The notes under the pieces are model-generated. The model ran no database searches. It saw only the letters and a list, made by a program, of their open reading frames with translations, and was not told where the DNA came from. A program made the translations under genes and the position numbers. Positions 32,420-45,768 of a DNA stretch of 64,000 nucleotides are shown one piece after another (position 1 is the first letter of the stretch; each line of letters starts with the position of its first letter). Source of the stretch: an uncultured Verrucomicrobiae bacterium (GTDB taxonomy: Bacteria; Verrucomicrobiota; Verrucomicrobiia; Chthoniobacterales; UBA10450); contig CAVWPA010000002.1 in the NCBI GenBank assembly GCA_963756875.1, forward strand, positions 64,001 through 128,000, given 5' to 3'.

Positions 32420-32421
32420 GC

Positions 32422-32477
32422 TGTAGCGGCGGTCTACTTGTCGCGCCGTAGCTGCGCGAAGGCGGACGACCGTCGCA
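32422..32477 (+). repeat. GTAG REP arm carrying a nested 30-bp module (32437..32466)
   Basis: TGTAGCGGCGGTCTA[CTTGTCGCGCCGTAGCTGCGCGAAGGCGGA]CGACCGTCGCA versus the empty arm at 45709. Confidence 0.88.
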
Positions 32478-32546
32478 CAAAATCGGGATTGGGTGCCCAC
32501 CGTGCTGTAGCTTGCGAACGGGGGTTGGCCACTCGACGTTTTCTGA

Positions 32547-33425
32547 ATGCCAGTCTTTTCGTTGGAGGACAAGGTCGCCCTGATCACCGGCGGCTCGCGT
32601 GGTCTGGGCCTGGTCATCGCGCGAGAACTGTGTCGTGCGCAGGCAAAAGTTGCGCTCCTTGCACGCGATCCGGAAGAGCTGGCGCGCGCAAAGGCCGATC
32701 TGGCTGGGAACGGCAGCGAAGTGCTGACGGTCCAATGCGATCTGCTCGATCGGGCTCAAATTGAATCGGCTGTTCGCCAAACTCTCGATCGATTCGGCGC
32801 GATCGATATTCTGATTAACAACGCCGGAGTCATTGTAGTCGGCCCGCTTGAGCATATGACTCGCGAAGATTTCGAGCGCAGCATGGGGGTGCATTTTTGG
32901 GCTCCGTTCGAATTGACGATGCAAATTGTTCCTGAAATGCGGCGTCGCGGCGGCGGTCGCATTGTTAATATTTCCTCAGTGGGCGGCAGGGTGGCTATCC
33001 CGCACATGGCGCCCTATGCAGCGAGCAAGTTCGCGTTAACAGGTTTCTCCGATGCGACTCGTGCCGAACTCGCCCGCCATAATATCCATGTCACCACCGT
33101 CACGCCGGGAATGATGAGGAGCGGCTCGCAGGTCCATGCGAAGTTCAAAGGTGCTCACCGTGCGGAATTCAATTGGTTCGAGTTGTCGACCAAACTTCCG
33201 CTGGCTTCCATTTCCGCCGAGCGTGCCGCCCGAAAGATTCTCGTTGCGTGCCGGCGAGGCCAGCCTGCGCTCATCATGCCGTGGCCAACGCGTTTGATCA
33301 TCGCGGCCAATTCGCTTTTTCCGGGTTTGACCGGCTACGCAATGAAAATCGTTAACCGATTCCTGCCCGCACCGACGGGCAAGGACGGCGACAAATCGAA
33401 GTCCGGTTCCGAAGTCCAAGGTTAA
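32547..33425 (+). CDS. Short-chain dehydrogenase/reductase (SDR)
   Basis: TGGSRGLG, NNAG, NISS, YAASK. Confidence 0.95.
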   Translation: MPVFSLEDKVALITGGSRGLGLVIARELCRAQAKVALLARDPEELARAKADLAGNGSEVLTVQCDLLDRAQIESAVRQTLDRFGAIDILINNAGVIVVGPLEHMTREDFERSMGVHFWAPFELTMQIVPEMRRRGGGRIVNISSVGGRVAIPHMAPYAASKFALTGFSDATRAELARHNIHVTTVTPGMMRSGSQVHAKFKGAHRAEFNWFELSTKLPLASISAERAARKILVACRRGQPALIMPWPTRLIIAANSLFPGLTGYAMKIVNRFLPAPTGKDGDKSKSGSEVQG

Positions 33426-33450
33426 TGTCTGCGTTGCCGCAAAATGTGCC

Positions 33451-34035
33451 ATGAATCGCCGGAGGCTTTTCGTAGCGATTGATTTGCCACAATCGATTCA
33501 GCAATTTCTCGTCCGCCTTGATCCGCATATTCGCGGTGTCCGTTGGACCGCCGGCGATCAAATGCATCTCACTCTCGGTTTTTTTCCGGAGGTGCCGGAG
33601 GATGTCGTCCTTATCTTGCGTGAAGAACTCGAGACGATCGAATTTCGCGCGTTCTTTCTGCCGGTCGAGAGTATTGGAACATTTCCCGCCAAGGGCGCAC
33701 CGAAAATCGTCTGGATCGGCGTTGGCGCGGCCCATCCACATCTTTTTCAACTTCACAAACGGATGCAGGACGCAGCGCTCGCTGCTGGACTCGAAGCCGA
33801 TTTGCGTCCGTGGCTTCCGCATATCAGTCTCGCGCGCTGTCGTGATGTTTCCGGCGGCGCGCTTCGCAAATTTCTCAAATCAAATGCCGATCTCGAGGTC
33901 GGAATGTTTCGCGTCGAAGCGTTTCATCTTTATTCGAGCGAACTGACATCCGCCGGCCCGATCCACACACGAGAACTGACAGTCCCCTGTAGCGGCGGTC
34001 TCCCTGTCACGCCGGAGCCACGCGAAGGCGGATGA
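33451..34035 (+). CDS. thpR: RNA 2',3'-cyclic phosphodiesterase (2'-5' RNA ligase family)
   Basis: RLFVAIDLP, HLTL.F, PHISLAR, F.LYSS.L...GP.H; last 15 codons are REP-derived. Confidence 0.92.
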   Translation: MNRRRLFVAIDLPQSIQQFLVRLDPHIRGVRWTAGDQMHLTLGFFPEVPEDVVLILREELETIEFRAFFLPVESIGTFPAKGAPKIVWIGVGAAHPHLFQLHKRMQDAALAAGLEADLRPWLPHISLARCRDVSGGALRKFLKSNADLEVGMFRVEAFHLYSSELTSAGPIHTRELTVPCSGGLPVTPEPREGG

Positions 34036-34104
34036 CAGTCGTATTAACTCTTTCTGCGAGCATTGAGTGCGGCCCGCCTACCGCAGCCAAGGGCAGCGGC
34101 TACA
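33988..34104. repeat. GTAG REP doublet between convergent thpR and MFS genes, with nested 30-bp module (34003..34032)
   Basis: TGTAGCGGCGGTCTC[CCTGTCACGCCGGAGCCACGCGAAGGCGGA]TGACAGTCG ... GCAGCGGCTACA; contains both genes' stop codons. Confidence 0.85.
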
Positions 34105-35548
34105 GCCCTTTGCTCGATAACGGCGCGGCGATCTGTTCGAGAGAGCGTCGCTCCGCGGGCACGCCGATCCATGCTTCAATCACCGCGCCAAAAATCATCA
34201 GCGCCGCAGCCACCAGATACCCGACAAACAGGGCGGTGCCGGATTTCGTGCCGATAATCCACCCGAACAATAACGGCGCGCCAACGCCGCCTGCCAGCGT
34301 CCCGATTGCATAAAAAATCGCGATCGCCAGAGCGCGAATCTCCAGCGGAAAAATCTCGCTTACCGTCAAGTAAGCAGAGCTGGCGGCTGCCGAGGCGATG
34401 AAGAAAATGATCGTCCAGGCGAGAGTTTGCGTTTCTGCAGTCAGTAATCCTGCATGAAAAAACCAGCCCGTGATCGCGAGTAAAACGCCGGCGAGCGCGT
34501 AAGTCGCCGCGATCATTTTTTTGCGGCCGATCGTGTCGAACAAATGCCCGAGCAGCAGTGGGCCAAGGACATTCCCTAGCGCGAACGGCAAAAGATAGGC
34601 GCCGACATTTTTTTCCGGCACGCCGTAAAACCGCATCAGAACAAGCGCGTAAGTGAAAAAAATCGCGTTGTAGAAAAAAGCCTGCGTCAGCATCAGCACA
34701 AAACCAAGAAACGAGCGGCGCCGATGTTCGTGTGCGATGGCGTTCCAAATCTCGTGCAAGGGAGTATGCGTGCGGGTGCGAATTCGGGTCGGAACTAACT
34801 CGCCGTAATTGGAATCAATGATCCCGTCGGGATTTGATGCCATAACTTTTCGTTCGACTTCACCCACGATTTTCTCCGCCTCTTCATTGCGTCCGTGGAT
34901 CATCAGCCAGCGTGGACTTTCCGGGATCCACCACCGAAAGAAAATCACCACCACGCCGAGGGTAGCGCCGATTCCGAACGCGCACCGCCAACCCAGCCAG
35001 ACTGGAAACCAGCGCGGATCAAGCAACACCAGGGTCGCCGCCGCTCCAAGCGCCGCACCAATCCAGTAGGAGCCGTTGATCATCAAATCCACCCGGCCGC
35101 GAACCCGCGCCGGAATCAGTTCGTCTATAGCCGAATTGATCGCTGCGTATTCACCGCCGATCCCTGCTCCGGTGATCGCCCGAAAAACCGCGTAACTCGC
35201 AAAATTCCAGGAGAACGCGCTAAGTCCCGTGGCGACGAGATAAACCGAGACAGTAATGAAGAATAATTTTTTTCGCCCCAGCCGGTCCGTTCCATAACCA
35301 AAGACCAGCGCGCCAAGGACTGCGCCCGCAAGATAGCAGGTCGCGGTCGCGCCCACCTGCGTATCGGTCAATCCCAGCGTTTCGGGGCGTGTTAGAATTC
35401 CGCCTAACGAGCCCGCCAGCGTGACTTCCAGTCCATCGAGAATCCAGGTCGCACCGAGAGCGCCCACGATGAGCCAGTGCCATCGGCTCCACGGAAGGCG
35501 ATCCAGACGTGCCGGCACGTATGACTTGATGATTTTGCCGCTCGTCAT
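34100..35548 (-). CDS. MFS transporter (sugar porter / aromatic acid-like)
   Basis: RLDRLPWS, DRLGRKK, GIGGEY, ELIPARVRG, PESPRWL, SEIFPLEIR. Confidence 0.93.
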   Translation of the reverse strand: MTSGKIIKSYVPARLDRLPWSRWHWLIVGALGATWILDGLEVTLAGSLGGILTRPETLGLTDTQVGATATCYLAGAVLGALVFGYGTDRLGRKKLFFITVSVYLVATGLSAFSWNFASYAVFRAITGAGIGGEYAAINSAIDELIPARVRGRVDLMINGSYWIGAALGAAATLVLLDPRWFPVWLGWRCAFGIGATLGVVVIFFRWWIPESPRWLMIHGRNEEAEKIVGEVERKVMASNPDGIIDSNYGELVPTRIRTRTHTPLHEIWNAIAHEHRRRSFLGFVLMLTQAFFYNAIFFTYALVLMRFYGVPEKNVGAYLLPFALGNVLGPLLLGHLFDTIGRKKMIAATYALAGVLLAITGWFFHAGLLTAETQTLAWTIIFFIASAAASSAYLTVSEIFPLEIRALAIAIFYAIGTLAGGVGAPLLFGWIIGTKSGTALFVGYLVAAALMIFGAVIEAWIGVPAERRSLEQIAAPLSSKGL

Positions 35549-35591
35549 CTTATTTCGGTTTCAGACGCCATTTGGCCTTGTTGAAATGGTA

Positions 35592-35782
35592 TGTCATTCC
35601 GAGTGGAGGAACAGCCTGCCCGCCGTGGCGGGAGGAATCTCTCATTGTTGTCAGACTGAACGCAGATGACAGCAAGAGATGTCTCCCATTCGACTCGCTA
35701 CGTTCGCTCAAGGCAGGCTTTCAATTTGGCGGCTTTGCCGCTATTAATTGGATGCAACGTCACGTTGCCGCTCGACATGATA
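35592..35782. repeat. GTCAT-ended palindromic element with internal insertions
   Basis: TGTCATTCCGAG..GAGGAATCTCT ... AGAGATGTCTC ... CTCGACATGATA; relatives at 53104 and 56308. Confidence 0.7.
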
Positions 35783-35796
35783 AGAGGACGTCAGAC

Positions 35797-36393
35797 TCAA
35801 CCAGGCGGTTTTGTCACTCTCTTGCCGTTGTTCGCCAGCCGCTCAAGTTCCCTGAGCACGCGATCGAGTTCCTGCACCAGTGGCTTGACGCGCCGTCCGC
35901 TAAAGGCGTTCACCAGTGCCCGGTAATACCAGAGGGTCCCTTGCTTTCCTCCTTTAAATCGGCCCCAGAGCTTTTCTCCATCCCGCCGATAGGCCATCAG
36001 CGAGGAGCGAACATTGTGCAGCTTGTCCGACGCGGAAACGAGTTGAGTTCTCTGCGAAGCATGACCGACATGCGCGACATACGCTTTCTTTCGCCGCAAC
36101 CACGGCGGTTTCGGCGTTTGATCCGTGTCCGTGCAACCGTCCACGATCTTCGCGACGGCTTTGCCGAATTGACGCTCGATGTCGCGTAATCGCTTCGAGC
36201 CGCCGCAGTCTTCGACGGCATCGTGCAAAAGGGCGCCGATCGCTTCCGTTTCGGTAGCGCCATACTCGAGCGCGATCGACGTTACGCCCAGGATGTGTGC
36301 GATGTAAGGGATCCTGGTTTTCTTTCGCAACTGGCCGCCATGAATTCGTGTGGCGTAAACCAGCGCGTTCTCAAATTTCGGCGACAATCGCAT
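35797..36393 (-). CDS. HD-domain small alarmone hydrolase-like protein (RelA/SpoT hydrolase, Mesh1-like)
   Basis: H.GQ.RK....PYIAH, LLHDAVED, DKLHN. Confidence 0.88.
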   Translation of the reverse strand: MRLSPKFENALVYATRIHGGQLRKKTRIPYIAHILGVTSIALEYGATETEAIGALLHDAVEDCGGSKRLRDIERQFGKAVAKIVDGCTDTDQTPKPPWLRRKKAYVAHVGHASQRTQLVSASDKLHNVRSSLMAYRRDGEKLWGRFKGGKQGTLWYYRALVNAFSGRRVKPLVQELDRVLRELERLANNGKRVTKPPG

Positions 36394-36432
36394 TCTTTCG
36401 TTTATTGAAGCGTCTCTGATGACAGCGCCTGT

Positions 36433-37819
36433 TCACAGCGTGCTGGATGGGACAAGGATCGCGTCGCTCATTCCGTGCAGAAATTTTTTGTCGGCGGGAA
36501 CGATTGTCGCGAGTGCGCCTCGCAATTTGACGCGATCGCTCTCGACGAAGAAATAGGGGCAAAGGCGCACGCGGCCTTTTATCGTTTTCAATTCGGTCGA
36601 TTCCGGATCCCAATATCGATGCTCGAACAGGCGGCCCTTGTGAAACTTCTGCATGATTGTGGGCGACGATTCGAATGTGGCGAGCGCGTGGTCGATTCGC
36701 TTTTCCCATTCAACATGCGGGAGATCGGCGCCGAGCGAGACACCGCGGCTGCCCCAGCCAAGCGGCGAAAATCCGCTCACTTTCAATAGAAGATCGCGAT
36801 CTTTCTGGCTAAACCTGGTGGCCTCGCGCCAATCGTGAATCTCAAGGCGTGGAATGACCGCATGCTGCGGCAACGGGGTGGGATCGAGCAGCCATGAATA
36901 GGGGATGACTTCCTGCAGCTTGAGAAAATATTTTTCGCCCAACTCGCGCCGCCAGAATTCACGCAACGGCTGCATCCAAAAGAGCGCAAACCACATTTTT
37001 TCTTCGAGGTACGGCTTGATCGGCGGTGTAATGGTGATGCGGCCTTCTGCATTCGCGCGCAGTGTCTTGTCGACGTTCGGGATGTTCGGCAGATCGAACA
37101 ACTCGAAGAAGCGGTAAACCGCGCGCCCATCCTCCGGCTCATAATTTTCCGCCGGCACGACGCGGAAAGAAGCCGATGCTGGATGTTGGATGCTGGATGC
37201 TGGATTTTCCGAGGCGGTGTCCGGCTTCTCATCCAGCATCAAGGATCCAGCATCCAGTATCTTCCGGTTGAGTCGCGCGGCCAGCCATTCCATCTCCGGA
37301 CGATAAGTTGCCGATTCCTGCGAAATCGCGACATCGCCGCCGTTGGGAAGAACGCTTTGAAATCCATCGAGCATTCCGTCCGTGCCACCAATGATTTCCT
37401 TTTCGAACGTCGAATAAGTTTGATTGAGCCACGCGGTTAAACCAATGCCGCCGGGTACAGAATCGATTTCCGCGATGATATAACCTTCGTCGGTGAGAAT
37501 GAGATCGGGGCGAATCACACGCGGCAGGTCTTCTCGAATCTCCTTGCGTCGGGAGAATTCGACGAGTTCCGGCGGTTTGCCGGCGTCCAGATACCGCGCA
37601 ATCCACGGCGGTTGCTTTCCCTTGATGCTCAACTGGTAAAGCTGGTTGCACGCGCGTTGAAAAACGAACAGGCGATGTCCAAGCTGTTCGAGCTCAGCCA
37701 CAAATGTCTTTCTCGACCGGAAACGCGTCGGGCGAAAGCAGCCAGTCCTTTTCCGCGAAGAGGCCCTCTTTCGGGAAGGCGGCACGAATGGCGGAAAGTC
37801 TGTCTTCTTGGACGAACAT
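36433..37819 (-). pseudogene. ATP-grasp-like (glutathionylspermidine synthase-like) protein with an early +1 frameshift
   Basis: IRPDLIL..G..IAEIDSVPGGIG, LLKVSG...WGSRGV..G, IMQKF; the N-terminus MFVQEDR..LSPDAFPVE joins KTFVAELEQ if one T is removed at 37709-37711. Confidence 0.7.
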
Positions 37820-37823
37820 TAAG

Positions 37824-37922
37824 AGCAAACGTCCAACGCCGAACGCCGAACGTCCAACGTCCAATGCAGAAAATTTCTGAATTCGACTTTCGGCGTTGGA
37901 CGTTGAGCGTTCGGCGTTTGCT
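37824..37922. repeat. Inverted heptamer tandem array (AACGYCS)n ... complementary tract
   Basis: AACGTCC AACGCCG AACGCCG AACGTCC AACGTCC ... CGGCGTT GGACGTT GAGCGTT CGGCGTT; fills the gap after ruvA. Confidence 0.88.
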
Positions 37923-37925
37923 GCA

Positions 37926-38537
37926 TTATCTCCCTGCGGCAATCCGCTTGAGCGCCAGCTTCACCAAATCCTCCGCCGATTGCGCTTCTCCTTTTTCCTG
38001 CAGATCGCGCACCGCTTTATGGGCATCGACCTGCTTGTAACCGAGCGCGATCAGGGCGAGCACCGCTTCGTTTGCCTGCTCCTGTTCGGGAGTAGGCGCG
38101 TGCGCCGCGCTTGCCACCTCCCATGCCGCGGCGACTCCAAGCTTGTCTTTCAATTCGAGAACGATTCGCTCGGCCGTTTTCTTGCCCAGGCCGCTGATTT
38201 TCGAAAGAGCCGCCACATCGGAATTCACGACCGCACTCTTGAAATTGGATACGCTCATTCCGCTTAACACAGCGAGCGCCAGCTTCGGCCCGATCCCGCT
38301 CACGTTGTTGACGAGCAGCCGAAAAAGATCGCGTTCCGGCGCGGTCATGAACCCGTAAAGCACATGGGCATCTTCACGGACGTGCAAGTGCGTCAGAATC
38401 CGGACCGCTTGACCAACCGCTGGAAGCCGATCGTAACTGGAAAGTGGAATGAGAACCTCGTAGCCGACTCCACCAACATCGACAATCGCCTGCGTTGGCA
38501 ACGCGCTAACCAGTTTGCCGTCGAGAAACGTGATCAT
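37926..38537 (-). CDS. ruvA: Holliday junction branch migration protein RuvA
   Basis: DVGGVGYEV, HVRED...LYGF, VSGIGPKLAL, GLGKKTAERIVLELKDK, LIALGY. Confidence 0.98.
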   Translation of the reverse strand: MITFLDGKLVSALPTQAIVDVGGVGYEVLIPLSSYDRLPAVGQAVRILTHLHVREDAHVLYGFMTAPERDLFRLLVNNVSGIGPKLALAVLSGMSVSNFKSAVVNSDVAALSKISGLGKKTAERIVLELKDKLGVAAAWEVASAAHAPTPEQEQANEAVLALIALGYKQVDAHKAVRDLQEKGEAQSAEDLVKLALKRIAAGR

Positions 38538-38580
38538 GTTTGGCCAATTCCTAACAGCGCGCGCTCAAACTGTAAACTAC

Positions 38581-38642
38581 TGTAGCGGCAGGCGTGCCGC
38601 CTGCGTTGTTGGATGAGCGCAGCCGACACGGCTGCCTCTACA
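38581..38642. repeat. GTAG-type REP doublet
   Basis: TGTAGCGGCAGGCGTGCCGCCTGC...GCAGCCGACACGGCTGCCTCTACA. Confidence 0.88.
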
Positions 38643-38646
38643 GAAT

Positions 38647-40110
38647 TCACTCCGGTTTCAGCAACAGCGTCAGTTCGACCCATTTGCCTTTCGGGATATT
38701 AAATCCGCGCGTTGAAAATGTTTTCCAGTTCGCCGGCGGGTCTGGAAACAGCTCTCGTTCGCGATCCGTCGGCATGATGACGAACCGTGGGCCCGGTCGC
38801 TCCATGAAACCGACTGTCCTGCGTGGATTGGGCGTGGTCATGAATCCGCGAATCCGGGAACGAAAATACCAGACCAAACTCGGCTCTGTGAAATCGGCGG
38901 CCGCGAATTCCATTGGGGCCAGCAACTGGGACCTCGCCTGTTGGTAAAGTTGCCATGAAGGGAAGAAACGGGCGGTAGCCGGCGCGACCAGCAGGGAGAT
39001 TCCAAGACAAAATGCGGCCATGCCGACGGCGAATTTCTTCAGCAGCGAAATCGAAAGTTCGCTGCGAATCCAGCTTCGTGTGAAGAGAAGCGCCAGCATT
39101 GGAAATGCGGGGAGCGTGTAATGCGGCAGTTTCGTTTTTACGAACGTAAAAATGAGGAAAATAATGGCCACGCGCCAGAGCAGGTAGGTATCGATGTGGT
39201 CGTGGTCTCGCCAAAGCGTTTTGGTCAGCCAGGGAAGTTTGATGGACCAGGGAAAAAAACTAAAAAACACCAGGACGAAGTAGTACGGAAGCATGAGCAG
39301 ATAGACGCCTAACGAGTTAGCACCGTGACCTTCCATCGCGCCAAACGAACGCTTGATGACGTGTCGCCCGATCCCGATCCTGAGAAACTCACCATGTGTT
39401 TGAACGAGCGCCGGAACTCCCCAAAGGGCGACGATGCCCAACATCAGCAGAATCCCGGAAACAAACTTGAAGCGATGGCTGAGCGGAAAACGTGGGCGAA
39501 AAAGTTTGGTCGATTCAGCGGTCAGTAACGGCGTCCATCCAATCGGCCCTTTCGCCAGGAATGCAAAAGCGAGCCCGAGATAGAAGGTCCACCACCAATA
39601 GGGCGATGGTTTCGACATTGAGCTCTGCGCGGCAGCAGTTTTTCCCAATCCCACCAGTTCGTGCCCGGCCCAGAACGCCAGCGTAACGAAGAGAACCAGC
39701 CACATGTCCGCCACCGCGGCCTTTGCGTGCACGAATGTTTGCAACGACAAGCTGAATATGATGGCCGCCCACCAGCCGAGTTTTGGACCGTCAATGCGCG
39801 ATCCCCATGCGAAAATCGCGAGAGCGATTAGAGCAGCCGCAATGGCCGATGGAAAACGGGCGGCGAAATCGTTTTGGCCAAAAATTTTGTAACTGACAAT
39901 CTGGGCCCAATAGGTGAAGGGCGGTTTATCGAGGCGAAAATGGTTGTTGAAGTAGGGAACGACGTAATTGCCGCGCTGGATCATTTCGCGTGACGCTTCC
40001 GAGAAGCGCGGCTCATCGCGATCGATCAACGGCAGGCTCCAGGTGCCGGCCATGTGGAACAACACACAGCCGATAAACAAAATTGCGTAATTGCGGGCTT
40101 CGGATTTCAA
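38647..40110 (-). CDS. ArnT/PMT-family (GT-C) glycosyltransferase
   Basis: D.DEPRF..ASREM, P.FN...R.DKPP..YW, ARFPSA, LAKGP, KTKLPHY.LP. Confidence 0.92.
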   Translation of the reverse strand: MKSEARNYAILFIGCVLFHMAGTWSLPLIDRDEPRFSEASREMIQRGNYVVPYFNNHFRLDKPPFTYWAQIVSYKIFGQNDFAARFPSAIAAALIALAIFAWGSRIDGPKLGWWAAIIFSLSLQTFVHAKAAVADMWLVLFVTLAFWAGHELVGLGKTAAAQSSMSKPSPYWWWTFYLGLAFAFLAKGPIGWTPLLTAESTKLFRPRFPLSHRFKFVSGILLMLGIVALWGVPALVQTHGEFLRIGIGRHVIKRSFGAMEGHGANSLGVYLLMLPYYFVLVFFSFFPWSIKLPWLTKTLWRDHDHIDTYLLWRVAIIFLIFTFVKTKLPHYTLPAFPMLALLFTRSWIRSELSISLLKKFAVGMAAFCLGISLLVAPATARFFPSWQLYQQARSQLLAPMEFAAADFTEPSLVWYFRSRIRGFMTTPNPRRTVGFMERPGPRFVIMPTDRERELFPDPPANWKTFSTRGFNIPKGKWVELTLLLKPE

Positions 40111-40112
40111 AT

Positions 40113-40393
40113 TAGTGTTGTGTAACCGGTATGGCTTGGCAATCGCCGCGAGGAGTTTGGACGAATTTCAAGAAGTGAGCGAAGCGCTGCCCCGAAAGCG
40201 TTCGGGGCTGGCCGAGCAAGCGACGCGGAAATTCGCTCAAAAAACTGCGGCCCGGAGGGTTGAGTTGAAAATGGCCCGGCGCCGGCGTTGCTCCTCGCTC
40301 ACAGGTCGCAGAGGACATGCTCCCTCGTCGCGCCTTGGCGGCGGGCCATTTTGAATTCAACGATTGGCAAGCCATACCGGTTACACAACACTA
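40113..40393. mobile_element. MITE, 281 bp including the flanking TA dinucleotides, 33-bp terminal inverted repeats
   Basis: TAGTGTTGTGTAACCGGTATGGCTTGGCAATCG versus the reverse complement of 40361..40393: 32/33 identical; internal 20-bp IR (40259-40278 / 40342-40361, 18/20); no transposase. Confidence 0.92.
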
Positions 40394-40439
40394 GCGATTG
40401 CAAAATAGCGCCCGAAGGCAGACAACGGGAATCTTATTC

Positions 40440-41060
40440 GTGAACCGAAAGACCGCTTTTTACTGGATCGCTGGAATTCTGATCGCGACGCTCGCCATCA
40501 TCGCGGCTTTTCATTTCGACGTGGCGGCGGAAAATTTCATGAAAGGACATCAAAACCGGGCGGTGCGGCATTTTATGCACAATGTAAGCCGGCTCGGTGA
40601 TTGGCCCCTGCACTTTGCGCTGGGGTTGGCGCTCGCTGCGATCGCATGGTGGCGGGGAAGCAAAAAATGGACGCGCATCTTTTTGGCGATGCTGATCGCT
40701 CTAGCGATTGCCGGCGTCGTTGGGCACGGCATCAAAATCGCGACCGGGCGCGCCCGTCCGTCGGTAAAAATGGAACAGGGTTGGAACGGCCCGAGTCTGA
40801 GCTCGAAGTATCATGCGTTTCCCTCCGGGCACGTGGCGGCTTCGACTGCGTTCTTTGCCGTTCTCCTTCTGGCCAATTGGCGAATCGGGCTTTTCTGTTT
40901 GCCGATTCCAGCCTTGATCGGCTTCGCCCGGATGTACATCTTCGCGCACTATCTGTCCGACGTCGTTTGCGCGGCAGTCCTTGGCGTCCTCTGCGCCCTG
41001 CTGGTCGCGCATTTTCTTCTTCCACCAATCCGCAATTCGCAATTGATTCGGCGGGAGTGA
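40440..41060 (+). CDS. PAP2 family membrane phosphatase (LpxE/LpxF/undecaprenyl-PP phosphatase-like)
   Basis: KIATGRARP, FPSGH, ARMYIFAHYLSD. Confidence 0.92.
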   Translation: MNRKTAFYWIAGILIATLAIIAAFHFDVAAENFMKGHQNRAVRHFMHNVSRLGDWPLHFALGLALAAIAWWRGSKKWTRIFLAMLIALAIAGVVGHGIKIATGRARPSVKMEQGWNGPSLSSKYHAFPSGHVAASTAFFAVLLLANWRIGLFCLPIPALIGFARMYIFAHYLSDVVCAAVLGVLCALLVAHFLLPPIRNSQLIRRE

Positions 41061-41292
41061 ACAACGTCCCATTCATCCTGCACTTTCACGTTCACGTGCA
41101 CTCTCTTTTCAAGAGCGGCAGCACGTGTAAGTGAAAGAGCAGGAGTAAAGATGGAAAGTGGCGGAGGGGTGAGATTATCCAAAGCTTTGGTTTGGCTATG
41201 GAGTTAGAGCTCTACAATAGCTGAAGTTTAACGTTCGCCACGGACGCCGACTTGCTCAACTTCGTCGCGGTGGCAAACTTGCTGCGCCGCGC

Positions 41293-41341
41293 TGTAGCCG
41301 CGGTCGTTGACCGCGGTCTGGCGTCAGAGACGCCGGTTACA
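41293..41341. repeat. GTAG-type REP directly upstream of tRNA-Ser
   Basis: TGTAGCCGCGGTCGTTGACCGCGG..GGCGTCAGAGACGCCGGTTACA. Confidence 0.8.
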
Positions 41342-41351
41342 GTTGAATCCC

Positions 41352-41439
41352 GGAGGGGTGGCAGAGTGGTTGATCGCGCCGGTCTTGAAAACCGGAAGGC
41401 CGAAAGGCCTCGTGAGTTCGAATCTCACCCCCTCCGCCA
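41352..41439 (+). tRNA. tRNA-Ser (TGA), CCA encoded
   Basis: GGAGGGG acceptor stem, CCGGT-CTTGAAA-ACCGG anticodon arm, long variable arm AGGCCGAAAGGCCT, GTTCGAATC T-loop, GCCA end. Confidence 0.98.
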
Positions 41440-41518
41440 CTATCGATCGCACGCCTGCGAGCTGTGTCGGCCACTCCTGGTTGTGCGAGCAAGTGAAAAT
41501 TCGACGTCGGACGAATCA

Positions 41519-41575
41519 TGCGACGGTCATCCGCCTTCGCGTGGCTCCGGCGCGACAAGTAGACCCCCCGCTACA
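41519..41575 (-). repeat. GTAG REP arm with nested 30-bp module (41530..41559)
   Basis: Reverse strand reads TGTAGCGGGGGGTCTA[CTTGTCGCGCCGGAGCCACGCGAAGGCGGA]TGACCGTCGCA. Confidence 0.88.
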
Positions 41576-41606
41576 GGAAAGAAGGATTCCACTCGACAGG
41601 CACGCA

Positions 41607-41620
41607 TGTTCATATGAACT
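41607..41620. promoter_or_regulatory. Putative Verrucomicrobia-type LexA (SOS) box
   Basis: TGTTC-ATAT-GAACT, one mismatch to TGTTC-N4-GAACA, ending 7 bp before the ATG of a SplB-like radical SAM gene. Confidence 0.75.
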
Positions 41621-41627
41621 TATTTGC

Positions 41628-42773
41628 ATGGTGAAGCGGAAATTCGTGCCGATTGTTGAGGAAACGCCCCCGCCATCACCGGCGGTTCGCGGTCGAGGAG
41701 CGTCGTGGAGCCCAGCGAACCGATTTGAAAAACTTCATGTCGATCTTGGCGATGTTGATGTCGTCCAGATCGATGGGGAGGACCCGTCTTCGCGCGGCTA
41801 CGGCGTGTCAGGCGAACGGCCGGCTCGCCAAACACAATATTTTCGTGATGGCACGAAAACGATCATTACCCGCAACAACAGCCCGGACGTCGGATTCGAG
41901 ACCAGCCTGAATCCATACCGGGGTTGCGAACACGGCTGCATTTATTGTTACGCGCGGCCGACGCACGAGTATCTCGGCTTATCCGCCGGACTCGATTTCG
42001 AGAGCAAGATCATGGTGAAAACGAATGCTCCGGAACTGCTAAAGGCGGAACTGGAGTCGCCGCAGTGGCAGCCGCAAACGCTCGTGATGAGCGGCGTGAC
42101 AGATCCCTATCAGCCGGTTGAAAGAAAATTGCGGATCACGCGGGGTTGCCTCGAAGTGTTGGCAAAATTTCGTAACCCGGTCGCGATCATCACCAAAAAT
42201 CGCCTCGTAACGCGCGATATCGATCTCCTGCGCGAGCTCGTAGATCATCATGCCACAGCGGTAAACATTTCGGTCACGTCGCTTGATCCGAAATTGCAGC
42301 GCGTCCTTGAACCGCGCACCTCTTCTCCCGATGCGCGACTGGATGCGATCAAGCAACTCCGGGACGCGCGCATTCCGGTCGGTGTCATGGTTGCGCCGAT
42401 TATTCCCGGCCTGACTGATCACGAAGTTCCGAAAATTCTTGATGCCTGCGCGAAAGCGGGCGCGCAGTTCGCCGGATACACGATTGTGCGTTTGCCCTGG
42501 GCCGTGGCGCCGCTGTTCGAGCATTGGCTCGAAGAACATTTCCCTGATCGCAAAGAAAAGGTGCTCGGACGCATTCGGCACCTCCGCGGAAACGGCCGGC
42601 TCAACAATTCGAAATGGCACGCGCGCATGAAAGGCGAGGGGATCTTTGCGGAGCAAATCCGGTCTTTGTTCGAAGTCAGTTGCCATCGTTCCAGCATTGG
42701 TGCCCGGCCGACACTTTCGAACGCATCATTTCGCCGGACGAGAACACAGCTCGATCTCTTTGCAGGTGGTTAA
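41628..42773 (+). CDS. Radical SAM protein, PA0069/Rv2578c (SplB-like) family
   Basis: RGRGA....NRFE, SLNPYRGCEHGCIYCYARPTHEY, GVTDPYQP.E, LEPRT, C-terminal QLDLF (beta-clamp-binding-like motif). Confidence 0.94.
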   Translation: MVKRKFVPIVEETPPPSPAVRGRGASWSPANRFEKLHVDLGDVDVVQIDGEDPSSRGYGVSGERPARQTQYFRDGTKTIITRNNSPDVGFETSLNPYRGCEHGCIYCYARPTHEYLGLSAGLDFESKIMVKTNAPELLKAELESPQWQPQTLVMSGVTDPYQPVERKLRITRGCLEVLAKFRNPVAIITKNRLVTRDIDLLRELVDHHATAVNISVTSLDPKLQRVLEPRTSSPDARLDAIKQLRDARIPVGVMVAPIIPGLTDHEVPKILDACAKAGAQFAGYTIVRLPWAVAPLFEHWLEEHFPDRKEKVLGRIRHLRGNGRLNNSKWHARMKGEGIFAEQIRSLFEVSCHRSSIGARPTLSNASFRRTRTQLDLFAGG

Positions 42774-42790
42774 TCTGCTATGCGGAAAAT

Positions 42791-42846
42791 TGCAGGGCGT
42801 TTCTGTGAACCCCGAAAGCCTTCGGGGCTGACACAGACGCCCTACA
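42791..42846. repeat. GTAG-type REP doublet whose loop is the CCCCGAAAGCNTTCGGGG hairpin
   Basis: TGCAGGGCGTTTCTGTGAA-CCCCGAAAGCCTTCGGGG-CTGACACAGACGCCCTACA; inverted copy within 54085..54197. Confidence 0.85.
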
Positions 42847-42859
42847 AAAGGCGATGATG

Positions 42860-44194
42860 CTACACCTCGCCTGGGTGTGGCTGCTTCGTTAGGCTGACCC
42901 GGCCAAAAATCGTCAGCATCAGCACTCCACCAATCAGACCGAATGGCGCCATGAAATAAAAATAATTGTTCCAGCTGCGGTCGAGAAGGGCGCCGAGGGC
43001 GATTCCCGCGAGGCTTCCGCCAAAGTATTGGAACGAATCGATTACGCCGGAAGCGAAGCCGGCCATTTTTGCGCCTCCAATGTCCATCGCTGCGGCTGTG
43101 CCCAGGATTGAGTGTGTGGAGTTGGCAGTCAGTGAAATCAGAACGAGAAACAAGACCGCGGCGTTGGCGCTGTGAAATTGCGCCGCACAAAGAATGATAA
43201 TCGTTTCGAGAAAGTAAAGACCGGCGGCAACCGGCGCGCGCCGGCCTCTAAATATGGTATCCGAAATGTAACCAGACAGAAGCGAGCCGACTGACGCGAC
43301 GAATGGAATCAAAAAGCCGAGGAATTGAAATTGTGCCGACTGAAAATCGACGTGATGCACTTCCTGCATGAATCGCGGAAACCATTGATCGATTCCCTGG
43401 CGTACTGCGCCGGTGCAGGCATATGCGCAGGCAATGATCCAGATGACTGGATTGCTGACGATGATTTTAAAAACGTCGGACACTTTGGACCGGACCTGTC
43501 CGCGTGTTTCTTCGTGCGGATTTACCGGCGGGAAATTCAGTTCCTCGGGCGTGTCCTTCACGATGAGCGCCATGCAGGTCCCAACGACCACGGCGATTCC
43601 TGCGGGGATCCAGAACAGCCAGCGCCAGTGAAGGGGCGGGATTCGAATGAGGCCAAGAAAAGTAAATCCGGCGAGCAATGCCGGACCGAGTTTAAAAATC
43701 CCGAAACGGCCGAGATTGATCATGAAGCCAAAGATTCCTGCGAAACGCCCGCGTTCCGTATGACGAAACCAGGCGGCATTGATCTTGACCATGCCGGGCG
43801 CGCCAAAGGATTGCATGTAACCGTCGATTCCGCGGATAACGACAAAGAGCCACAGCAAACCCCAAAAGGACGCGGCGCCGAAAAGAATGTTCATGACGAC
43901 GGTCCCGACCGTGCCGATGAGCATTGCGCGCTTTCCGCCAAGCCGGTCCGTGAGCAATCCGTTAACGATTTGACCGCAGGCGTACGCAAACAGCGCGGTG
44001 GTGATGATCGCGCCCATCTGCTCTTTACTGAAACCGAACTGATTGCTGATGTTCTTGTTCGCCAGCGACAGGTTATACCGGCACATGTAGAACGACGTGT
44101 ACAGCAGACCCACAAACGCCCAGTTCAATCCGCGGCGTGGCCGAAAGCCGGGCGGATGTGGAATGGAAACAGAAGCGCGCGTCGATTCGGGCAT
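42860..44194 (-). CDS. MFS transporter, OPA (GlpT/UhpC-like) family
   Basis: Y.SFY.CR.N, Y..GQ..NG...DR.G, WF...ERG, GYISD....RR, G.ASG.I....Y.G. Confidence 0.88.
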   Translation of the reverse strand: MPESTRASVSIPHPPGFRPRRGLNWAFVGLLYTSFYMCRYNLSLANKNISNQFGFSKEQMGAIITTALFAYACGQIVNGLLTDRLGGKRAMLIGTVGTVVMNILFGAASFWGLLWLFVVIRGIDGYMQSFGAPGMVKINAAWFRHTERGRFAGIFGFMINLGRFGIFKLGPALLAGFTFLGLIRIPPLHWRWLFWIPAGIAVVVGTCMALIVKDTPEELNFPPVNPHEETRGQVRSKVSDVFKIIVSNPVIWIIACAYACTGAVRQGIDQWFPRFMQEVHHVDFQSAQFQFLGFLIPFVASVGSLLSGYISDTIFRGRRAPVAAGLYFLETIIILCAAQFHSANAAVLFLVLISLTANSTHSILGTAAAMDIGGAKMAGFASGVIDSFQYFGGSLAGIALGALLDRSWNNYFYFMAPFGLIGGVLMLTIFGRVSLTKQPHPGEV

Positions 44195-44336
44195 GGTTGA
44201 AGAGGATGCGTTAAAACCGCGAGTCGGCGCAATGGGAAATCAAAAGCGGCGGATTTCCAGAATGCTACCGCCGCTACAAAAGAGCTGTATGAACGCCATG
44301 CTCGTGTTCATTCGTGGTCGGCGATCGCCAAATGTC

Positions 44337-45701
44337 TCACCCGATGCAGATCGTCTTTGCGTTTACGAACTCGCGGATGCCATGGCCGCCGAGTTCTCTT
44401 CCAAAACCGGAGCGTTTGACTCCTCCAAACGGCAGTCTCGGATCGGACGCGACCATCGCATTGATGAAAACCATTCCGGTTTCAAGCTCAGACTCGAATA
44501 ATTCTCGTTCGGCCGGGTCGTTTGTCCATGCGCTTGCTCCCAGACCAAAGCTGCTGTCGTTTGCTGCGGCCACCGCTTCGGCAGCGTTGCTCACGCGGAA
44601 AATAGATGCAACCGGGCCAAAAACCTCTTCCCGCCAGGCAGGCGCCGTTTTCGGAACGTCGACGAGCACGGTCGGTTCATAAAAAAATCCCGGGCCGTGA
44701 ATCCGGTTTCCACCGGTCAGCAACTTCGCGCCGGCGGCAATCGATTTTTGAACCTGTTCGTTCAAACCGTTCAGGATCTGTTCCGTGGCAAGCGGCCCAA
44801 TATCGGTCGCTTCGTCGAGCGGGTCGCCGACTTTCAGCCAGCGCATGCGCTCGACAAATTCGCGAACGAATCGGTCGTAAAGTTTGTCGGCGACAAGAAA
44901 TCGCTTTGCAGCAATGCACGACTGACCGGTGTTGAGAGTGCGGGCCTTCACGGCGGTGGAGATGGCGTTCTCGAAATCCGCGCTCGGCATCACGATAAAT
45001 GCGTCGCTGCCACCCAGTTCGAGAACAGCTTTCTTTATTTCGCGTCCAGCCACGCTGGCCACCGCGCTTCCTGCACGCTCGCTGCCGGTAAGGGTGACGG
45101 CTTTGATTCGTGGATCGACGAGTACCCCTTCCACTTGCTCCGCTTCGATCAACAAGGTTTGAAAAACGCCTTCCTCGAAACCGGCACGGCAAAAGATCTG
45201 TTCAATATCGAGCGCACACTGCGGAACATTCGCCGCATGTTTGAGCAATCCGACGTTTCCCGCCATCAAGGCAGGCACGGCGAACCGGAACACCTGCCAG
45301 AACGGAAAATTCCATGGCATGATTGCGAGGACCGGCCCGAGCGGCTCGTAGTGCACATAACTGCGGGCGGCGTCGGTTTGCACCGCTTCGTCCTCCAGAA
45401 ATCGATCTGCGTTCTCCGCATAATAACGGCAGGCACGCGCGCATTTTTCTACTTCTTCGACCGCTGCCCGAAGAAGTTTGCCCATTTCGAGCGTCATCGT
45501 GCGCGCAAACTTTTCCTTTTCCTGGTGCAACAATGCAGCTGTCGCCGTCATCAATTCCGCGCGCTCGGCGAACGGCTTTTTTCGATAGCGCGCAAATGCC
45601 TGCTCGGCACAATCGAGACGCTTGCCGATCTCCTTATCGTCGAAGGTCGGAAATTTCTTCAGCGTTTTGCCGGTAGCTGGATTAATCGAAGCGATGGCCA
45701 T
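44337..45701 (-). CDS. NAD(P)-dependent succinate-semialdehyde dehydrogenase (Sad/GabD1-like)
   Basis: IMPWNFPFWQ, LTGSERAG, LELGGSD, GQSCIAAKR, EEVFGP, PFGGVKRSGFGREL. Confidence 0.93.
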   Translation of the reverse strand: MAIASINPATGKTLKKFPTFDDKEIGKRLDCAEQAFARYRKKPFAERAELMTATAALLHQEKEKFARTMTLEMGKLLRAAVEEVEKCARACRYYAENADRFLEDEAVQTDAARSYVHYEPLGPVLAIMPWNFPFWQVFRFAVPALMAGNVGLLKHAANVPQCALDIEQIFCRAGFEEGVFQTLLIEAEQVEGVLVDPRIKAVTLTGSERAGSAVASVAGREIKKAVLELGGSDAFIVMPSADFENAISTAVKARTLNTGQSCIAAKRFLVADKLYDRFVREFVERMRWLKVGDPLDEATDIGPLATEQILNGLNEQVQKSIAAGAKLLTGGNRIHGPGFFYEPTVLVDVPKTAPAWREEVFGPVASIFRVSNAAEAVAAANDSSFGLGASAWTNDPAERELFESELETGMVFINAMVASDPRLPFGGVKRSGFGRELGGHGIREFVNAKTICIG

Positions 45702-45708
45702 TTCTTAC

Positions 45709-45768
45709 TGTAGCGGCGCTCTATGACCGTCGCATTTATTAGTCCGACGCTCATAGAGCGCCGCTACA
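45709..45768. repeat. GTAG REP doublet (the empty form lacking the 30-bp module)
   Basis: Perfect IR TGTAGCGGCGCTCTATGA / TCATAGAGCGCCGCTACA; its TAG is the stop of the ABC gene. Confidence 0.92.

Follow-up and report, generated by a model that had tools for sequence, protein, structure and literature searches.

A miniature hairpin repeat of 28-33 nt in REP loops and genes of an uncultured Verrucomicrobiae bacterium

GTAG-tagged REPs and REPINs are imperfect palindromes of 20-40 nt with an unpaired 5' GTAG, present in high copy number and frequently arranged as inverted doublets, and REPs are normally lineage-specific. In a REPtron, a Y1 (RAYT) gene is flanked by copies of the repeat. The module analysed here, which we call M, is close to two groups of repeats described in 2013 by Di Nocera, De Gregorio and Rocco (PMC3733652), namely the CGTC/TGTC-tagged REPs and the large-loop REP variants. 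In the sections of that survey used here, the CGTC-tagged superfamily, which includes Neisseria dRS3 and Rickettsia RPE-4 and RPE-6, has a terminal tag that is often altered to TGTC (TGTC or CCTC variants are allowed), and its four described families show 8-9-bp stems opening with complementary A-T pairs, loops of 4-5 nt and a CCA tail. The large-loop GTAG REPs (GTAG-3, GTAG-14; 'GRCG/CGYC', 'GCGG/CCGC type') carry either a short loop or a long one, self-complementary with GC ends and up to 27 bp in size; these loops are treated there as types within a REP family and are common to REP families of different species. The same sections describe repeats centred in palindromes (T. roseum GTAG-23, H. 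neapolitanus CGTC-1 dimers and A. variabilis GTAG-15), as well as Rickettsia palindromic elements (RPE) and intragenic REPs of Opitutus terrae that are tolerated in frame as extra peptide.

M is a miniature hairpin repeat of 28-33 nt and was first seen as a 30-mer in the window, the whole 64,000-nt stretch of DNA under analysis (C2:64001-128000). A sequence-only reading had reported four 30-bp copies in the window, and all of them are present: at 32437-32466 (+; nhmmer E 6.7e-06), 34003-34032 (+; E 1.2e-05), 41530-41559 (-; E 8.1e-06) and 41783-41812 (-). The first three lie in the apical loops of GTAG REPs. REP 1 (GTAGCGGCGGTCTA...CGACCGTCGCA; 32423-32477, +) begins 4 nt past the stop codon of the ORF at 31958-32419, REP 2 spans 33989-34043 (+), and REP 3 (41519-41575, -) is placed between a tRNA gene (41352-41436) and a radical SAM gene. 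As had been proposed, the three copies share one spot, between ...GGTCTA and TGACCGTCGCA, and its empty form is found at 45710-45734. This empty unit belongs to a REPIN-like doublet (45710-45767) of two inverted GTAG REP units, 45710-45734 (+) and 45744-45767 (-), with a 3-nt loop (TAT/ATA) at the place that M takes in the filled copies; the doublet folds into a single hairpin of -29.1 kcal/mol (z -9.8). With up to three mismatches, the first 30-mer matches at 32437 and 41530, against an expectation of 0.00 in 100 shuffles, while the 34003 copy, more diverged from it, came up in a consensus search of the whole genome and with nhmmer. The fourth copy is solo, degenerate and situated within the radical SAM coding sequence. 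Re-reading agreed with its 25/30 identity to the 34003 copy; it aligns to model positions 1-29 with a genome-wide nhmmer E of 0.012 (17.8 bits), no longer folds (z +1.36) and, read from the opposite strand, encodes PSSRGYGVSG.

Genome-wide, nhmmer finds 56 confident, near-full-length copies at E<0.5 and 68 at a looser cut of E<3, which supplies the further independent loci that the sequence-only reading had asked for, distributed over at least five host hairpin families and sites in coding sequences. The consensus is CYTGYC-R-CGCC-GWAG-C(loop)G-CGAAG-GCGG-R. The length is not fixed at 30 bp, as had been supposed; it ranges from 28 to 33 nt with a mode of 30 (33/56 copies). M begins with CYTG (CCTG in 32 and CTTG in 15 of 56), a short 5' tag that overlaps TGTC/TGCC; in this genome the tag is TGTC in type A and TGCC in type B. 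Of the 56 copies, 14 lie between convergent genes and 11 in divergent intergenic regions, and in tandem-gene regions a crude gene call puts M antisense in 14 cases and sense in 5.

The stem of M is formed by the pairs Y5-R30 and C6-G29, a bulged purine and then CGCC/GGCG. Above it lies a conserved, non-complementary 3x3 internal loop, G-W-A over G-A-A, owing to which GWAG/GAAG occurs in both arms, and a 2-bp GC/GC helix that bears a variable apical loop. Pair 5-30 is Watson-Crick in 53/56 copies (C-G 31, T-A 22; shuffles mean 28.4, maximum 39), and pair 16-20 is C-G in 44, T-A in 5 and T.G in 5 of the 56. For three window copies both the MFE and the centroid structure (ViennaRNA) are this hairpin, and the folding energy of single window copies is no better than that of shuffles (z -0.5 to -1.3). 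Because M itself is a hairpin with internal inverted symmetry, the earlier remark that no terminal inverted repeats were obvious needs correction. Like the CGTC superfamily (PMC3733652), M is a short tagged palindrome that occurs in several phyla and in frame within ORFs; it forms head-to-head dimers at some Acidobacteriota loci, and neither M nor, as far as the survey describes, the superfamily has a dedicated transposase flanked by the repeats, a negative feature and as such weak evidence. On the other hand, its YC(R)CGCC/GGCGGR stem, its 3x3 internal loop and its second small helix differ from the stems and loops of the four CGTC families, M is followed by T in 45/56 copies rather than by a CCA tail, and the five phyla listed in the sections used here are without Verrucomicrobia, Acidobacteria and CPR.

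M favours the single-stranded tips of other hairpins, GTAG REPs of several families and GGAGGGAC hairpins, and at least five different hairpin families, GTAG REPs or others, have it there. The REP that hosts it in the window, GTAGCGGCGSTC-TAT-GASCGYCG, is a classic GTAG-tagged REP/REPIN with 103 units in the genome and the inverted doublet at 45710-45767. Its loop is the empty 3-nt form in 82/103 units and holds M in 14 according to a scan that missed the third filled copy of the window, which adds to the 14. Other hairpins with filled examples are GTAGCGGCAGGC, GTAGCCACCGGCC, GTAGCCACGGCG, GTAGCCGCCCGC and GGAGGGAC. The sequences flanking M form an inverted repeat with a score of at least 5 in 26/56 copies vs. 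8.4% of 5000 random sites, and with a score of at least 8 in 13/56 vs. 0.6%. GTAG lies upstream on the strand of M in 21/56 copies, and the inverted arrangement occurs in 0/56. The bordering bases (CG 21, TG 13 and TA 12 on the left, T 45 on the right; n=56) give a junction preference of YR^T.

That M lacks a target duplication was borne out at its REP-loop and CDS junctions. M also occurs at YR^T junctions between short tandem direct repeats: abutting direct repeats of 6-14 nt, mostly part of longer tandem tracts, flank 12/56 copies, and this subclass would fit a duplication-making mechanism. MITEs, which derive from DDE transposases, have terminal inverted repeats and a target-site duplication of fixed length; M differs from them in the absence of a duplication at REP-loop and CDS sites and in the variable length of the flanking repeats elsewhere.

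At least five genes contain M in frame, either alone or together with its host hairpin. In the radical SAM gene (41628-42773, +; Pfam PF04055, residues 95-273) the 10-codon insert falls in a variable N-terminal acidic linker, and excision of the 30 nt joins GED directly to ERP, as the sequence-only reading had it. The ten residues are present in 0/19 orthologues, the comparison which that reading had named as a test, and all 19 are 8-18 residues shorter at the site. A solo insert without REP arms sits within the Lactamase_B_2 domain of an MBL-fold gene; exactly 10 residues are missing there in 9/9 orthologues, so that the boundaries, also put forward as a test, are sharp. The insert in a MeaB fusion linker is missing from 9/9 orthologues, L192 showing a clean gap of 10 residues, and the one in a GT9 domain from 9/9, among which L202 retains the host hairpin and has a gap of 9 residues. 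In a YyaL/DUF255 gene, a REP doublet occupies one site in three genera; its second loop is empty (CTCA-C-AGAG) in G015 and contains M of 30 nt in this genome (G000) and of 31 nt in G012, and all 30 residues of the doublet are absent from 4/9 orthologues. At orthologous sites, M behaves as a discrete unit that is either present or absent. Within populations, filled/empty polymorphism was not seen, the contigs from the sole holder runs either matching the window exactly or being too distant.

The copies in enzyme domains are in frame on either strand, and the closely examined CDS copies are 30 nt long in 6/6 cases, which fits selection against frame-breaking copies. Frame-neutrality by length, which had been suggested for the element, is not a property of M because its lengths span 28 to 33 nt; genic copies survive only where they amount to whole codons and the linker or loop tolerates them. 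As in-frame palindromes that are absent from orthologues, these copies resemble RPE and the Opitutus terrae inserts. The survey, in the sections used here, calls RPE-1 a 'longer palindromic insertion' and describes most intragenic REP inserts as dimers encoding 20-30 residues (PMC3733652), whereas M alone adds just 10.

The repeat is not confined to this genome. Its exact core pattern occurs in 40/61 genomes of the family, with 0 to 47 copies each and reversed-pattern controls of 0 or 1 per genome; congeners differ, as in genus g10 with 10, 3 and 47 copies. Across phyla, the hairpin is present at more than 122 loci in genome_contigs, and more than 126 viral contigs match it (IMG/VR). A Bradyrhizobium jicamae genome has 46 copies (control 0), an Acidobacteriota MAG has 39 (control 3), and two 0.4-Mb CPR genomes have two each. 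The closing pair, which the search pattern leaves unconstrained, is Watson-Crick in 101/121 classifiable cross-phylum matches (shuffles mean 50.4, maximum 68). The four bases before the stem in these 121 are TGTC in 35, TGCC in 26 and CGTC in 11, under a pairing model in which the last two tag bases count as paired. About 20 core bases are near-identical across phyla, which is unusual for REPs. Together with the virus contigs, the near-identical copies in many phyla suggest that M is a REP-type mobile element of unusually small size; conserved function could be an alternative.

From these observations we consider M, with a probability of roughly 0.6, to be a miniature, non-autonomous, REP-like hairpin element; that it is a discrete inserted and proliferating element is quite probable. 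The original idea of an ultra-short element parasitising other repeats stands insofar as M is a discrete unit in repeats and solo in a gene, while the accounts of its symmetry and length have been amended and its range extends beyond this genome.

The likeness of M to known loops raises the question of whether it could be a long-loop REP variant, born inside a REP and spreading only as a composite through RAYT-driven REP/REPIN mobility or gene conversion between homologous REP arms, with the empty and filled forms as loop alleles. Self-complementary loops with GC-rich ends of up to 27 bp are known from Bradyrhizobium GTAG-14 REPs and loop sequences are common to REP families of different species, as the survey describes (PMC3733652); judged by description, the published large loop is probably identical with M, and at four Bradyrhizobium loci (L073, L074, L103, L150) the hairpin does lie within GTAGGGTGGGCA...TGCCCACC. 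Moreover, the filled copies of the window's REP family in this genome show one orientation of M and one subtype (T5-A30), which indicates that composite spread or gene conversion contributes; within one REP family it cannot be separated from new insertion. The caveat that a single insertion was followed by spread of the composite cannot explain the copies in unrelated REP families, the solo copies in coding sequences or the filled and empty forms at the YyaL site. The host hairpins have unrelated stems, other copies lie between tandem direct repeats, the MBL-fold and radical SAM inserts have no REP arms, and 104/125 cross-phylum matches have neither GTAG upstream nor CTAC downstream. Unlike the loop types of the survey, M is also found in non-REP hairpins and in taxa where that REP is missing, and orthologous REPs may have it or lack it; the nested REPs and REP dimers described there occupy one fixed target palindrome, and M the loops of several REP families. 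Taken together, this makes the loop-variant origin improbable.

Equally improbable, in our estimate, is that M is a selected cis-acting motif and not a selfish one, an RNA or ssDNA hairpin whose GWA/GAA loop may serve as a factor binding or processing site, recruited repeatedly or kept for transcript stabilisation or processing or for DNA organisation. Across phyla, both the GWA/GAA loop and the CGCC/GGCG stem stay conserved, with covariation in the apical helix and the closing pair, and the apical loops are often stable and tetraloop-like (CTTG in 20/125 cross-phylum matches). Copies in an rRNA spacer, beside tRNA genes and as hairpin P3 of an RNase P RNA, and the 14/56 between convergent genes, also suit such a role. 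A selected motif would sit poorly, however, with 0 to 47 copies in one family and unequal congeners, with in-frame copies on either strand of enzyme domains, and with the 11/56 divergent and the 14 antisense vs. 5 sense placements of the crude gene call. Rfam likewise offers no family for M, either in window positions 30000-47000 at E<=1 or in 20 cross-phylum loci at E<=5, where the matches are to neighbouring tRNA and RNase P genes, plus a weak one to P26 (E 0.78).

Insertion sequences that target REP loops exist, and M might be a by-product, either the excision footprint of a larger hairpin-loop-targeting element or repair filler at hairpin tips. Hairpin apices are indeed its favoured site, and the 12/56 copies with abutting direct repeats resemble target duplications. 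Yet no larger element with M-like ends was present at any inspected site, duplications are absent at REP and CDS sites, and a footprint would not preserve, from phylum to phylum, a hairpin that covaries, with its internal loop conserved and its apical loop variable; we regard this origin as very improbable. Chance similarity in GC-rich sequence, especially for the radical SAM copy, was tested and rejected, since despite a G+C-rich core and single-copy fold energies no better than shuffles, shuffles predict 0.00 matches, the weakest window copy still reaches E 0.012 genome-wide, reversed-pattern controls yield 0-1 per genome vs. up to 47, and the gap in the radical SAM orthologues coincides exactly with the matching 30 nt.

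How could a miniature element of this kind move? In line with the sequence-only reading, which placed the mobilising enzyme outside the window, no Y1 transposase gene lies within it, the closest being at C2:136900 and C2:26294. The genome carries six Y1_Tnp loci, and a search for a transposase gene consistently flanked by M, which had been suggested, gave M (E<0.5) within 3 kb of 1/6 (C1:672335, about 1.5 kb off and on one side), an arrangement other than that of a REPtron. Across 61 genomes, the numbers of Y1 genes and M copies show no clean tracking (G006 has 8 M and 0 Y1; G003, G020 and G065 have 6-7 Y1 and 0 M). Elements of the IS200/IS605 type, with their PATE-like derivatives, insert strand-specifically 3' of a short ssDNA target without duplication and have subterminal hairpins and an orientation bias to the lagging-strand template. 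The corresponding observations for M are a lack of duplication, a YR^T junction, an apex preference, a 21:0 polarity relative to GTAG and a strand bias of 34 lagging to 22 leading (n=56, own count). This bias is weak and strand-specific wobble is absent (G.T 10 vs. A.C 8 over eight pairs of M); neither directly supports a route via ssDNA.

M shares with the REPIN/RAYT systems (compare PMC3337134 and PMC3479197) its hosts, which are classic REPs with a GTAG tag and inverted doublets and whose arrays flank a Y1 gene (C3:12137), as well as an internal GTAG/GAAG and a single orientation relative to the host GTAG. It differs in having no terminal GTAG and no pairs flanking a Y1 gene and in being about one REP arm long; its GTAG/GAAG lies inside the hairpin (positions 12-15 and 22-25), so M is not itself a GTAG-tagged REP. 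The six Y1_Tnp loci and this RAYT-type tetranucleotide suggest that M may travel as single-stranded DNA, with an HUH/Y1 enzyme of the RAYT/IS200 type acting in trans to cut and paste or copy it, and insert into single-stranded sites without target duplication. To movement by a ssDNA mechanism via Y1/RAYT we give somewhat less than even odds. Alternatively, a host replication or repair activity might move M, an idea already raised for the CGTC-tagged REPs, which lack a transposase; filled loops may also spread when homologous REP arms undergo gene conversion, and carriage on phage or prophage DNA would account for the cross-phylum distribution. In its boldest and rather unlikely form, the proposal would make M the smallest self-propagating bacterial DNA unit yet seen, a pan-bacterial hairpin of 28-33 nt that homes strand-specifically to ssDNA hairpin tips and slipped tandem repeats, uses a resident RAYT-type enzyme via its internal GTAG or the universal replication and repair machinery, is phage-borne between phyla including CPR, and seeds ten-residue inserts in enzymes and RNA helices such as P3 of RNase P.

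REP 'loop variants' can be separate passengers and not alleles, which changes how REP and REPIN populations are counted and modelled. In the annotation of many phyla, copies of M also give rise to spurious ORFs and to the peptide motifs PPSRGYGAxG and RLSRRSxAKAx, and M adds clean 10-residue indels to conserved enzymes and extra helices to genes for structural RNAs. If M is mobile alone, the size limit of a transposable unit would drop to one hairpin of about 30 nt, and the repeat would be a testable substrate for the question raised in 2013 of how tagged palindromes spread without a dedicated transposase.

The sequence-only reading had claimed four copies of one 30-mer in the window, three of them nested in a GTAG-tagged palindromic repeat (REP) that also occurs empty, and both observations are confirmed. 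All four copies are present at the claimed positions. The three nested ones are flanked by GTAGCGGCGGTCTA and TGACCGTCGCA, and the empty form of this REP lies at 45710-45734 with its inverted partner at 45744-45767, a doublet that forms a single, strong hairpin (-29.1 kcal/mol, z -9.8). A search with the first 30-mer returned the copy at 32437 (+) exactly and that at 41530 (-) with 3 mismatches (0 matches in 100 shuffles). The more diverged copies, at 34003 and in the radical SAM ORF, were both recovered by a genome-wide consensus search and an nhmmer profile, the ORF copy with a genome-wide E of 0.012 (2.69 Mb) and an alignment to model positions 1-29. The genome is assembled in three contigs (C1, C2 and C3) with 57% G+C, and the window corresponds to C2:64001-128000. 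The window also contains GTAG REPs of other families at 38580, 41292 and 44268 (GTAGCGGCAGGCGTGCCGCCTGC..., GTAGCCGCGGTCGTTGACCGCGG... and the minus-strand head TTGTAGCGGCGG), all unfilled, and two tRNA genes, at 31297-31370 (-) and 41352-41436 (+), the latter 82 nt upstream of a REP-plus-module and ~190 nt before the start of the radical SAM gene.

Genome-wide, nhmmer found 68 near-full-length copies of this module (M) at E<3 and 56 at E<0.5; a looser regular expression gave 456 matches, mostly spurious, which were left out of the counts. The end-aligned consensus is C-Y-T-G-Y-C-R-C-G-C-C-G-W-A-G-C, a loop of 1-6 nt, and G-C-G-A-A-G-G-C-G-G-R, and the 56 copies measure 28 nt (n=4), 29 nt (n=3), 30 nt (n=33), 31 nt (n=13), 32 nt (n=2) or 33 nt (n=1). 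M is a hairpin. Its four CGCC/GGCG pairs are nearly invariant, the pair 16-20 is C-G in 44 copies, T-A in 5 and T.G in 5, and the closing pair 5-30 is C-G in 31/56 and T-A in 22/56 (shuffle mean 28.4, maximum 39). A looser cut adds three copies with G at position 5, and two of these three have C at position 30. The two helices are separated by a 3x3 loop that is conserved and non-complementary (GTA/GAA 24, GAA/GAA 11, GTA/GTA 4). For the three REP-borne window copies, the ViennaRNA MFE and centroid are exactly this structure, with fold energies no better than those of shuffles (z -0.5 to -1.3); the fold is lost in the copy within the radical SAM ORF. Wobble pairs are symmetric between the strands (G.T 10 vs A.C 8), which makes them uninformative as a test of RNA versus DNA.

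The covarying pairs and the ViennaRNA structure correct the earlier statement that M has no TIR, because M folds as a hairpin and is itself one small imperfect palindrome. The absence of a target duplication stands, as the REP-loop and CDS junctions show none. As to its relation to known structures, searches against Rfam gave no family matching M. The 5′ half is reminiscent of the 5′ end of E. coli 5S rRNA, but the 5S of this genome (C1:201588-201703) is unlike M, and a derivation from 5S was rejected. On inspection of the sequence, readings of M as a K-turn, group II intron domain 5, attC, a CRISPR repeat or a MITE were set aside, as their defining motifs are lacking.

The flanks of M were compared with 5000 random sites. 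Inverted-repeat flanks with a score of at least 5 surround 26/56 copies vs 8.4% of the random sites, and those with a score of at least 8 surround 13/56 vs 0.6%. The REP family of the window has 103 units in this genome, with a 3-nt loop in 82 and M in 14; the third filled copy of the window is absent from those 14 because two mismatches in its arm hid it from the scan. M also fills REPs whose stems are quite different (GTAGCGGCAGGC, GTAGCCACCGGCC, GTAGCCACGGCG and GTAGCCGCCCGC) as well as GGAGGGAC...GTCCC hairpins, and in these other host families the majority of members are unfilled. GTAG lies upstream on the strand of M in 21/56 copies, and the inverted arrangement occurs in 0/56. The junction is mostly YR^T, with CG (21), TG (13) or TA (12) on the left and T (45) on the right (n=56).

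M is also found between short tandem direct repeats, for example TTGGGCG, TCATTCG, ATTCGCG and TTTTTTAGCG. Abutting direct repeats with a score of at least 7 flank 12/56 copies vs 0.6% of random sites, and all 12 belong to the subtype closed by C5-G30. Heptamer tracts exist away from M too, and TRF, noisy at the low threshold used, reported 2928 arrays of period 6-11, 12 of them at most 15 nt from an M. The heptamer context of the copies in this genome recurs at locus L102, from a Chthoniobacterales MAG. The tandem repeats may be targets, duplications that have accumulated, or products of slippage. Tandem repeats of period 7-10 and of lineage-specific sequence flank M copies in several phyla (loci L076, L096, L129, L162, L171 and L172 in other genomes); in this genome, they occur at C1:501102, C3:862670 and C2:4508 and in the flanks of type B copies (tag TGCC), and such repeats are seen away from M as well. 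A crude gene call assigns 12 copies to CDSs and the others to intergenic positions, of which 14 are convergent, 11 divergent and 19 tandem (14 antisense, 5 sense), and the replication-strand bias is weak (34 lagging vs 22 leading).

Besides M, a second and different nested loop unit, GGAGGGACGAC-[CGAAGCCAGCCCGCCGGGGCGGGT]-GTCGTCCC, occurs in about six copies (e.g. C1:283679, C1:643766, C3:1592957, C3:390772 and C3:268944), and a further mosaic, GTAGGGACATC-GCGCTGCGATGTCCGGACGCCGCAGCGC-GGCGTCCC, in about eight. Mosaics of hairpins within hairpins are thus a general feature of this genome.

Six M copies, all of 30 nt, lie deep in ORFs with Pfam domains. At the radical SAM site of the window, 19/19 same-family orthologues (G002, flagged unpublished, among them) are 8-18 residues shorter, and PSSRGYGVSG is found in none. 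In the Lactamase_B_2 domain encoded by an MBL-fold gene, 9/9 orthologues lack precisely the ten residues LSRRSRAKAE. The insert of a B12-binding/MeaB fusion is also missing in 9/9 orthologues, and for it locus L192 has a clean gap of 10 residues between the conserved ...TSN and AQRPTSK; both sets of nine include G007, flagged unpublished. The insert of a lipid-A acyltransferase/GT9 fusion is likewise missing in 9/9 orthologues, and at locus L202, from G014 alone (flagged unpublished), the host hairpin is kept (WRDA...RRVP) with a 9-residue gap in place of M. For the copy in an AMP-binding gene (C3:569779) 9 orthologues vary too much in the region for a clean indel call; with GTAGAGGCCGCCG upstream, it may be a REP-plus-M composite. 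Read on the opposite strand in one phase, M encodes PPS(R/P)GYGA(A/T)G in three genes, and on its own strand RLSRRS(R/S)AKA(E/D) in two.

The sixth site, in a YyaL/DUF255 gene (C3:1514800-1514900; L052-L056 in relatives), holds a whole REP doublet plus M, and all 30 residues are missing in 4/9 orthologues. The GTAGCGGCG-type doublet is shared with the related genomes G012 and G015; in G015 its second REP is unfilled, and in G012 a 31-nt M belonging to the other subtype fills it. Genera differ in the REP found here, as G008 carries another one, GTAGCCGGGATCGACGATCCCGGCCACAG, and G010 has no REP; the site resembles a hot spot for insertion in a surface linker. In the doublet, the first REP is a variant, GTAGCGGCCCCGAAAGCRTTCGGGGTCGCA, a hairpin from a different inner palindrome, which is seen at C3:1514790-1514825, C1:82739 and C1:452839.

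M is also found near RNA genes. The copy CCTGCCGCGCCGTAGTGGCGTAGGCGGA at C1:201793-201820 (-) (L183:1706-1733) lies ~90 nt upstream of the 5S rRNA gene, presumably in the 23S-5S spacer, and would therefore belong to the rRNA precursor. In a Sphingorhabdus MAG (L123:80-223), a bacterial class A RNase P RNA that is truncated by the end of the locus (85.9 bits) has, just 5′ of GGAAAGTCCGGGCTCC, a module-like P3 hairpin, GTCCGCCGAAGCTTTAGCGAAGGCGGA, which may be an insertion or the ancestral P3. At two cross-phylum loci M adjoins tRNA genes.

Is M peculiar to one genome? The exact core pattern CGCCGWAGY-N2-8-GCGWAGGCGG is present in 40/61 genomes of the family, at 0 to 47 copies and unequally between congeners; no genome has more than 1 match to the reversed-pattern control. 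Outside the family, with one genome per species, there are at least 122 loci; the taxa among the matches listed are Verrucomicrobiota, Acidobacteriota, Alphaproteobacteria, Planctomycetota, Bacteroidota, Nitrospirota, Kiritimatiellia, Lentisphaerae and several CPR/Patescibacteria groups. The search pattern left the closing pair unconstrained, and it is Watson-Crick in 101/121 classifiable cases among the matches listed (shuffle mean 50.4, maximum 68), so far above the shuffles that the cross-phylum matches are not due to chance. Also among the matches listed (121), the four preceding bases are TGTC in 35, TGCC in 26 and CGTC in 11, and longer apical loops are self-complementary. Bradyrhizobium jicamae has 46 copies (reversed-pattern control 0), an Acidobacteriota MAG 39 (control 3), Niastella 4 (control 0) and two CPR genomes of 0.4 Mb 2 each (controls 0 and 1). 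In IMG/VR at least 126 viral contigs match, one with three copies, and the closing pair is Watson-Crick in 91/114 classifiable cases among the matches listed. Multicopy M in distant phyla, with CPR genomes and viral contigs among its carriers, thus contradicts restriction to a single genome. The proposal of an ultra-short element keeps its core and is amended on three counts: M folds as a hairpin, is of variable length and occurs beyond one genome. In one soil-metagenome study searched for filled/empty polymorphism, no read joint skipped M, and contigs were either short and identical to the window or from distant relatives; a contig over 32360-32650 was identical with M intact. The best run matched 0.11 of the words, and none of the runs found was RNA, so that these reads bear on neither mobility nor expression.

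In the text of Di Nocera et al. (2013, PMC3733652), REPs fall into GTAG- and CGTC-tagged superfamilies, the tag CGTC is often altered to TGTC, and CGTC repeats have no dedicated transposase. The same text describes in-frame genic REPs, chiefly in the verrucomicrobium O. terrae and in R. conorii (RPE-4/-6), REPs nested within other palindromes, loop sequences common to families of different species, and Bradyrhizobium GTAG-14 REPs with 'GCGG/CCGC type' loops of up to 27 bp with complementary residues. Compared by this description, the long GTAG-14 loop is probably M, because four Bradyrhizobium loci hold M inside GTAGGGTGGGCA...TGCCCACC. M differs from the stem, loop and tail definitions that the text gives for the four CGTC families, and unlike GTAG REPs it has no terminal GTAG. 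We therefore class M outside the named families, as a new variant of tagged palindromic repeats and possibly a new family in relation to that text. Sequence and topic searches of the literature, with the text of PMC3733652, gave no report of the loop unit existing alone, of M entering genes alone as ten codons, of the loops of several REP families filled in one genome with one polarity, of M presence/absence at an orthologous REP, of multicopy M in distant phyla, or of M in small CPR genomes (2 copies each) and in viral contigs.

The evidence shows that M is a discrete hairpin unit, present or absent at orthologous positions. It entered unrelated host sequences without duplication and favours single-strand-prone sites, its orientation with respect to the REP tag is fixed, and closely related genomes differ widely in their number of copies. 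A small, non-autonomous, REP-type mobile element behaves in this way. Insertion without duplication, the preference for hairpin apices, the YR^T junctions and the polarity relative to GTAG would all fit transposition of M as single-stranded DNA by an HUH/Y1 enzyme, and filled loops probably spread within a REP family through gene conversion between REP arms. No enzyme linked to M was found: of the six Y1_Tnp loci in this genome, one has an M within 3 kb, none lies in the window, and some are flanked by their own REP arrays. Across the 61 genomes, related and hence not independent, Y1 and M counts have no clean relation. One RAYT-like Y1_Tnp gene, at C3:12137-12349 (-), has tandem arrays of GTAGAGGCAGGCGTGTCGCCTGC...GCAGCCGGCACGGCTGC REP doublets with a ~83-bp period on both sides (C3:11700-12650) and is, with them, a textbook REPtron. 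Another Y1_Tnp-like stretch, at C2:26294-26587, lies within a very long open frame (1542 aa) and recurs in relatives in frames of 1000-1500 aa (at least 20 hits); the carriers include genomes without M, so this type is a large, conserved protein that contains an HUH-like domain. The independence of M, its nesting polarity and its cross-phylum conservation at such a small size would surprise a specialist, and they make the problem of the 'transposase-less REP' testable.
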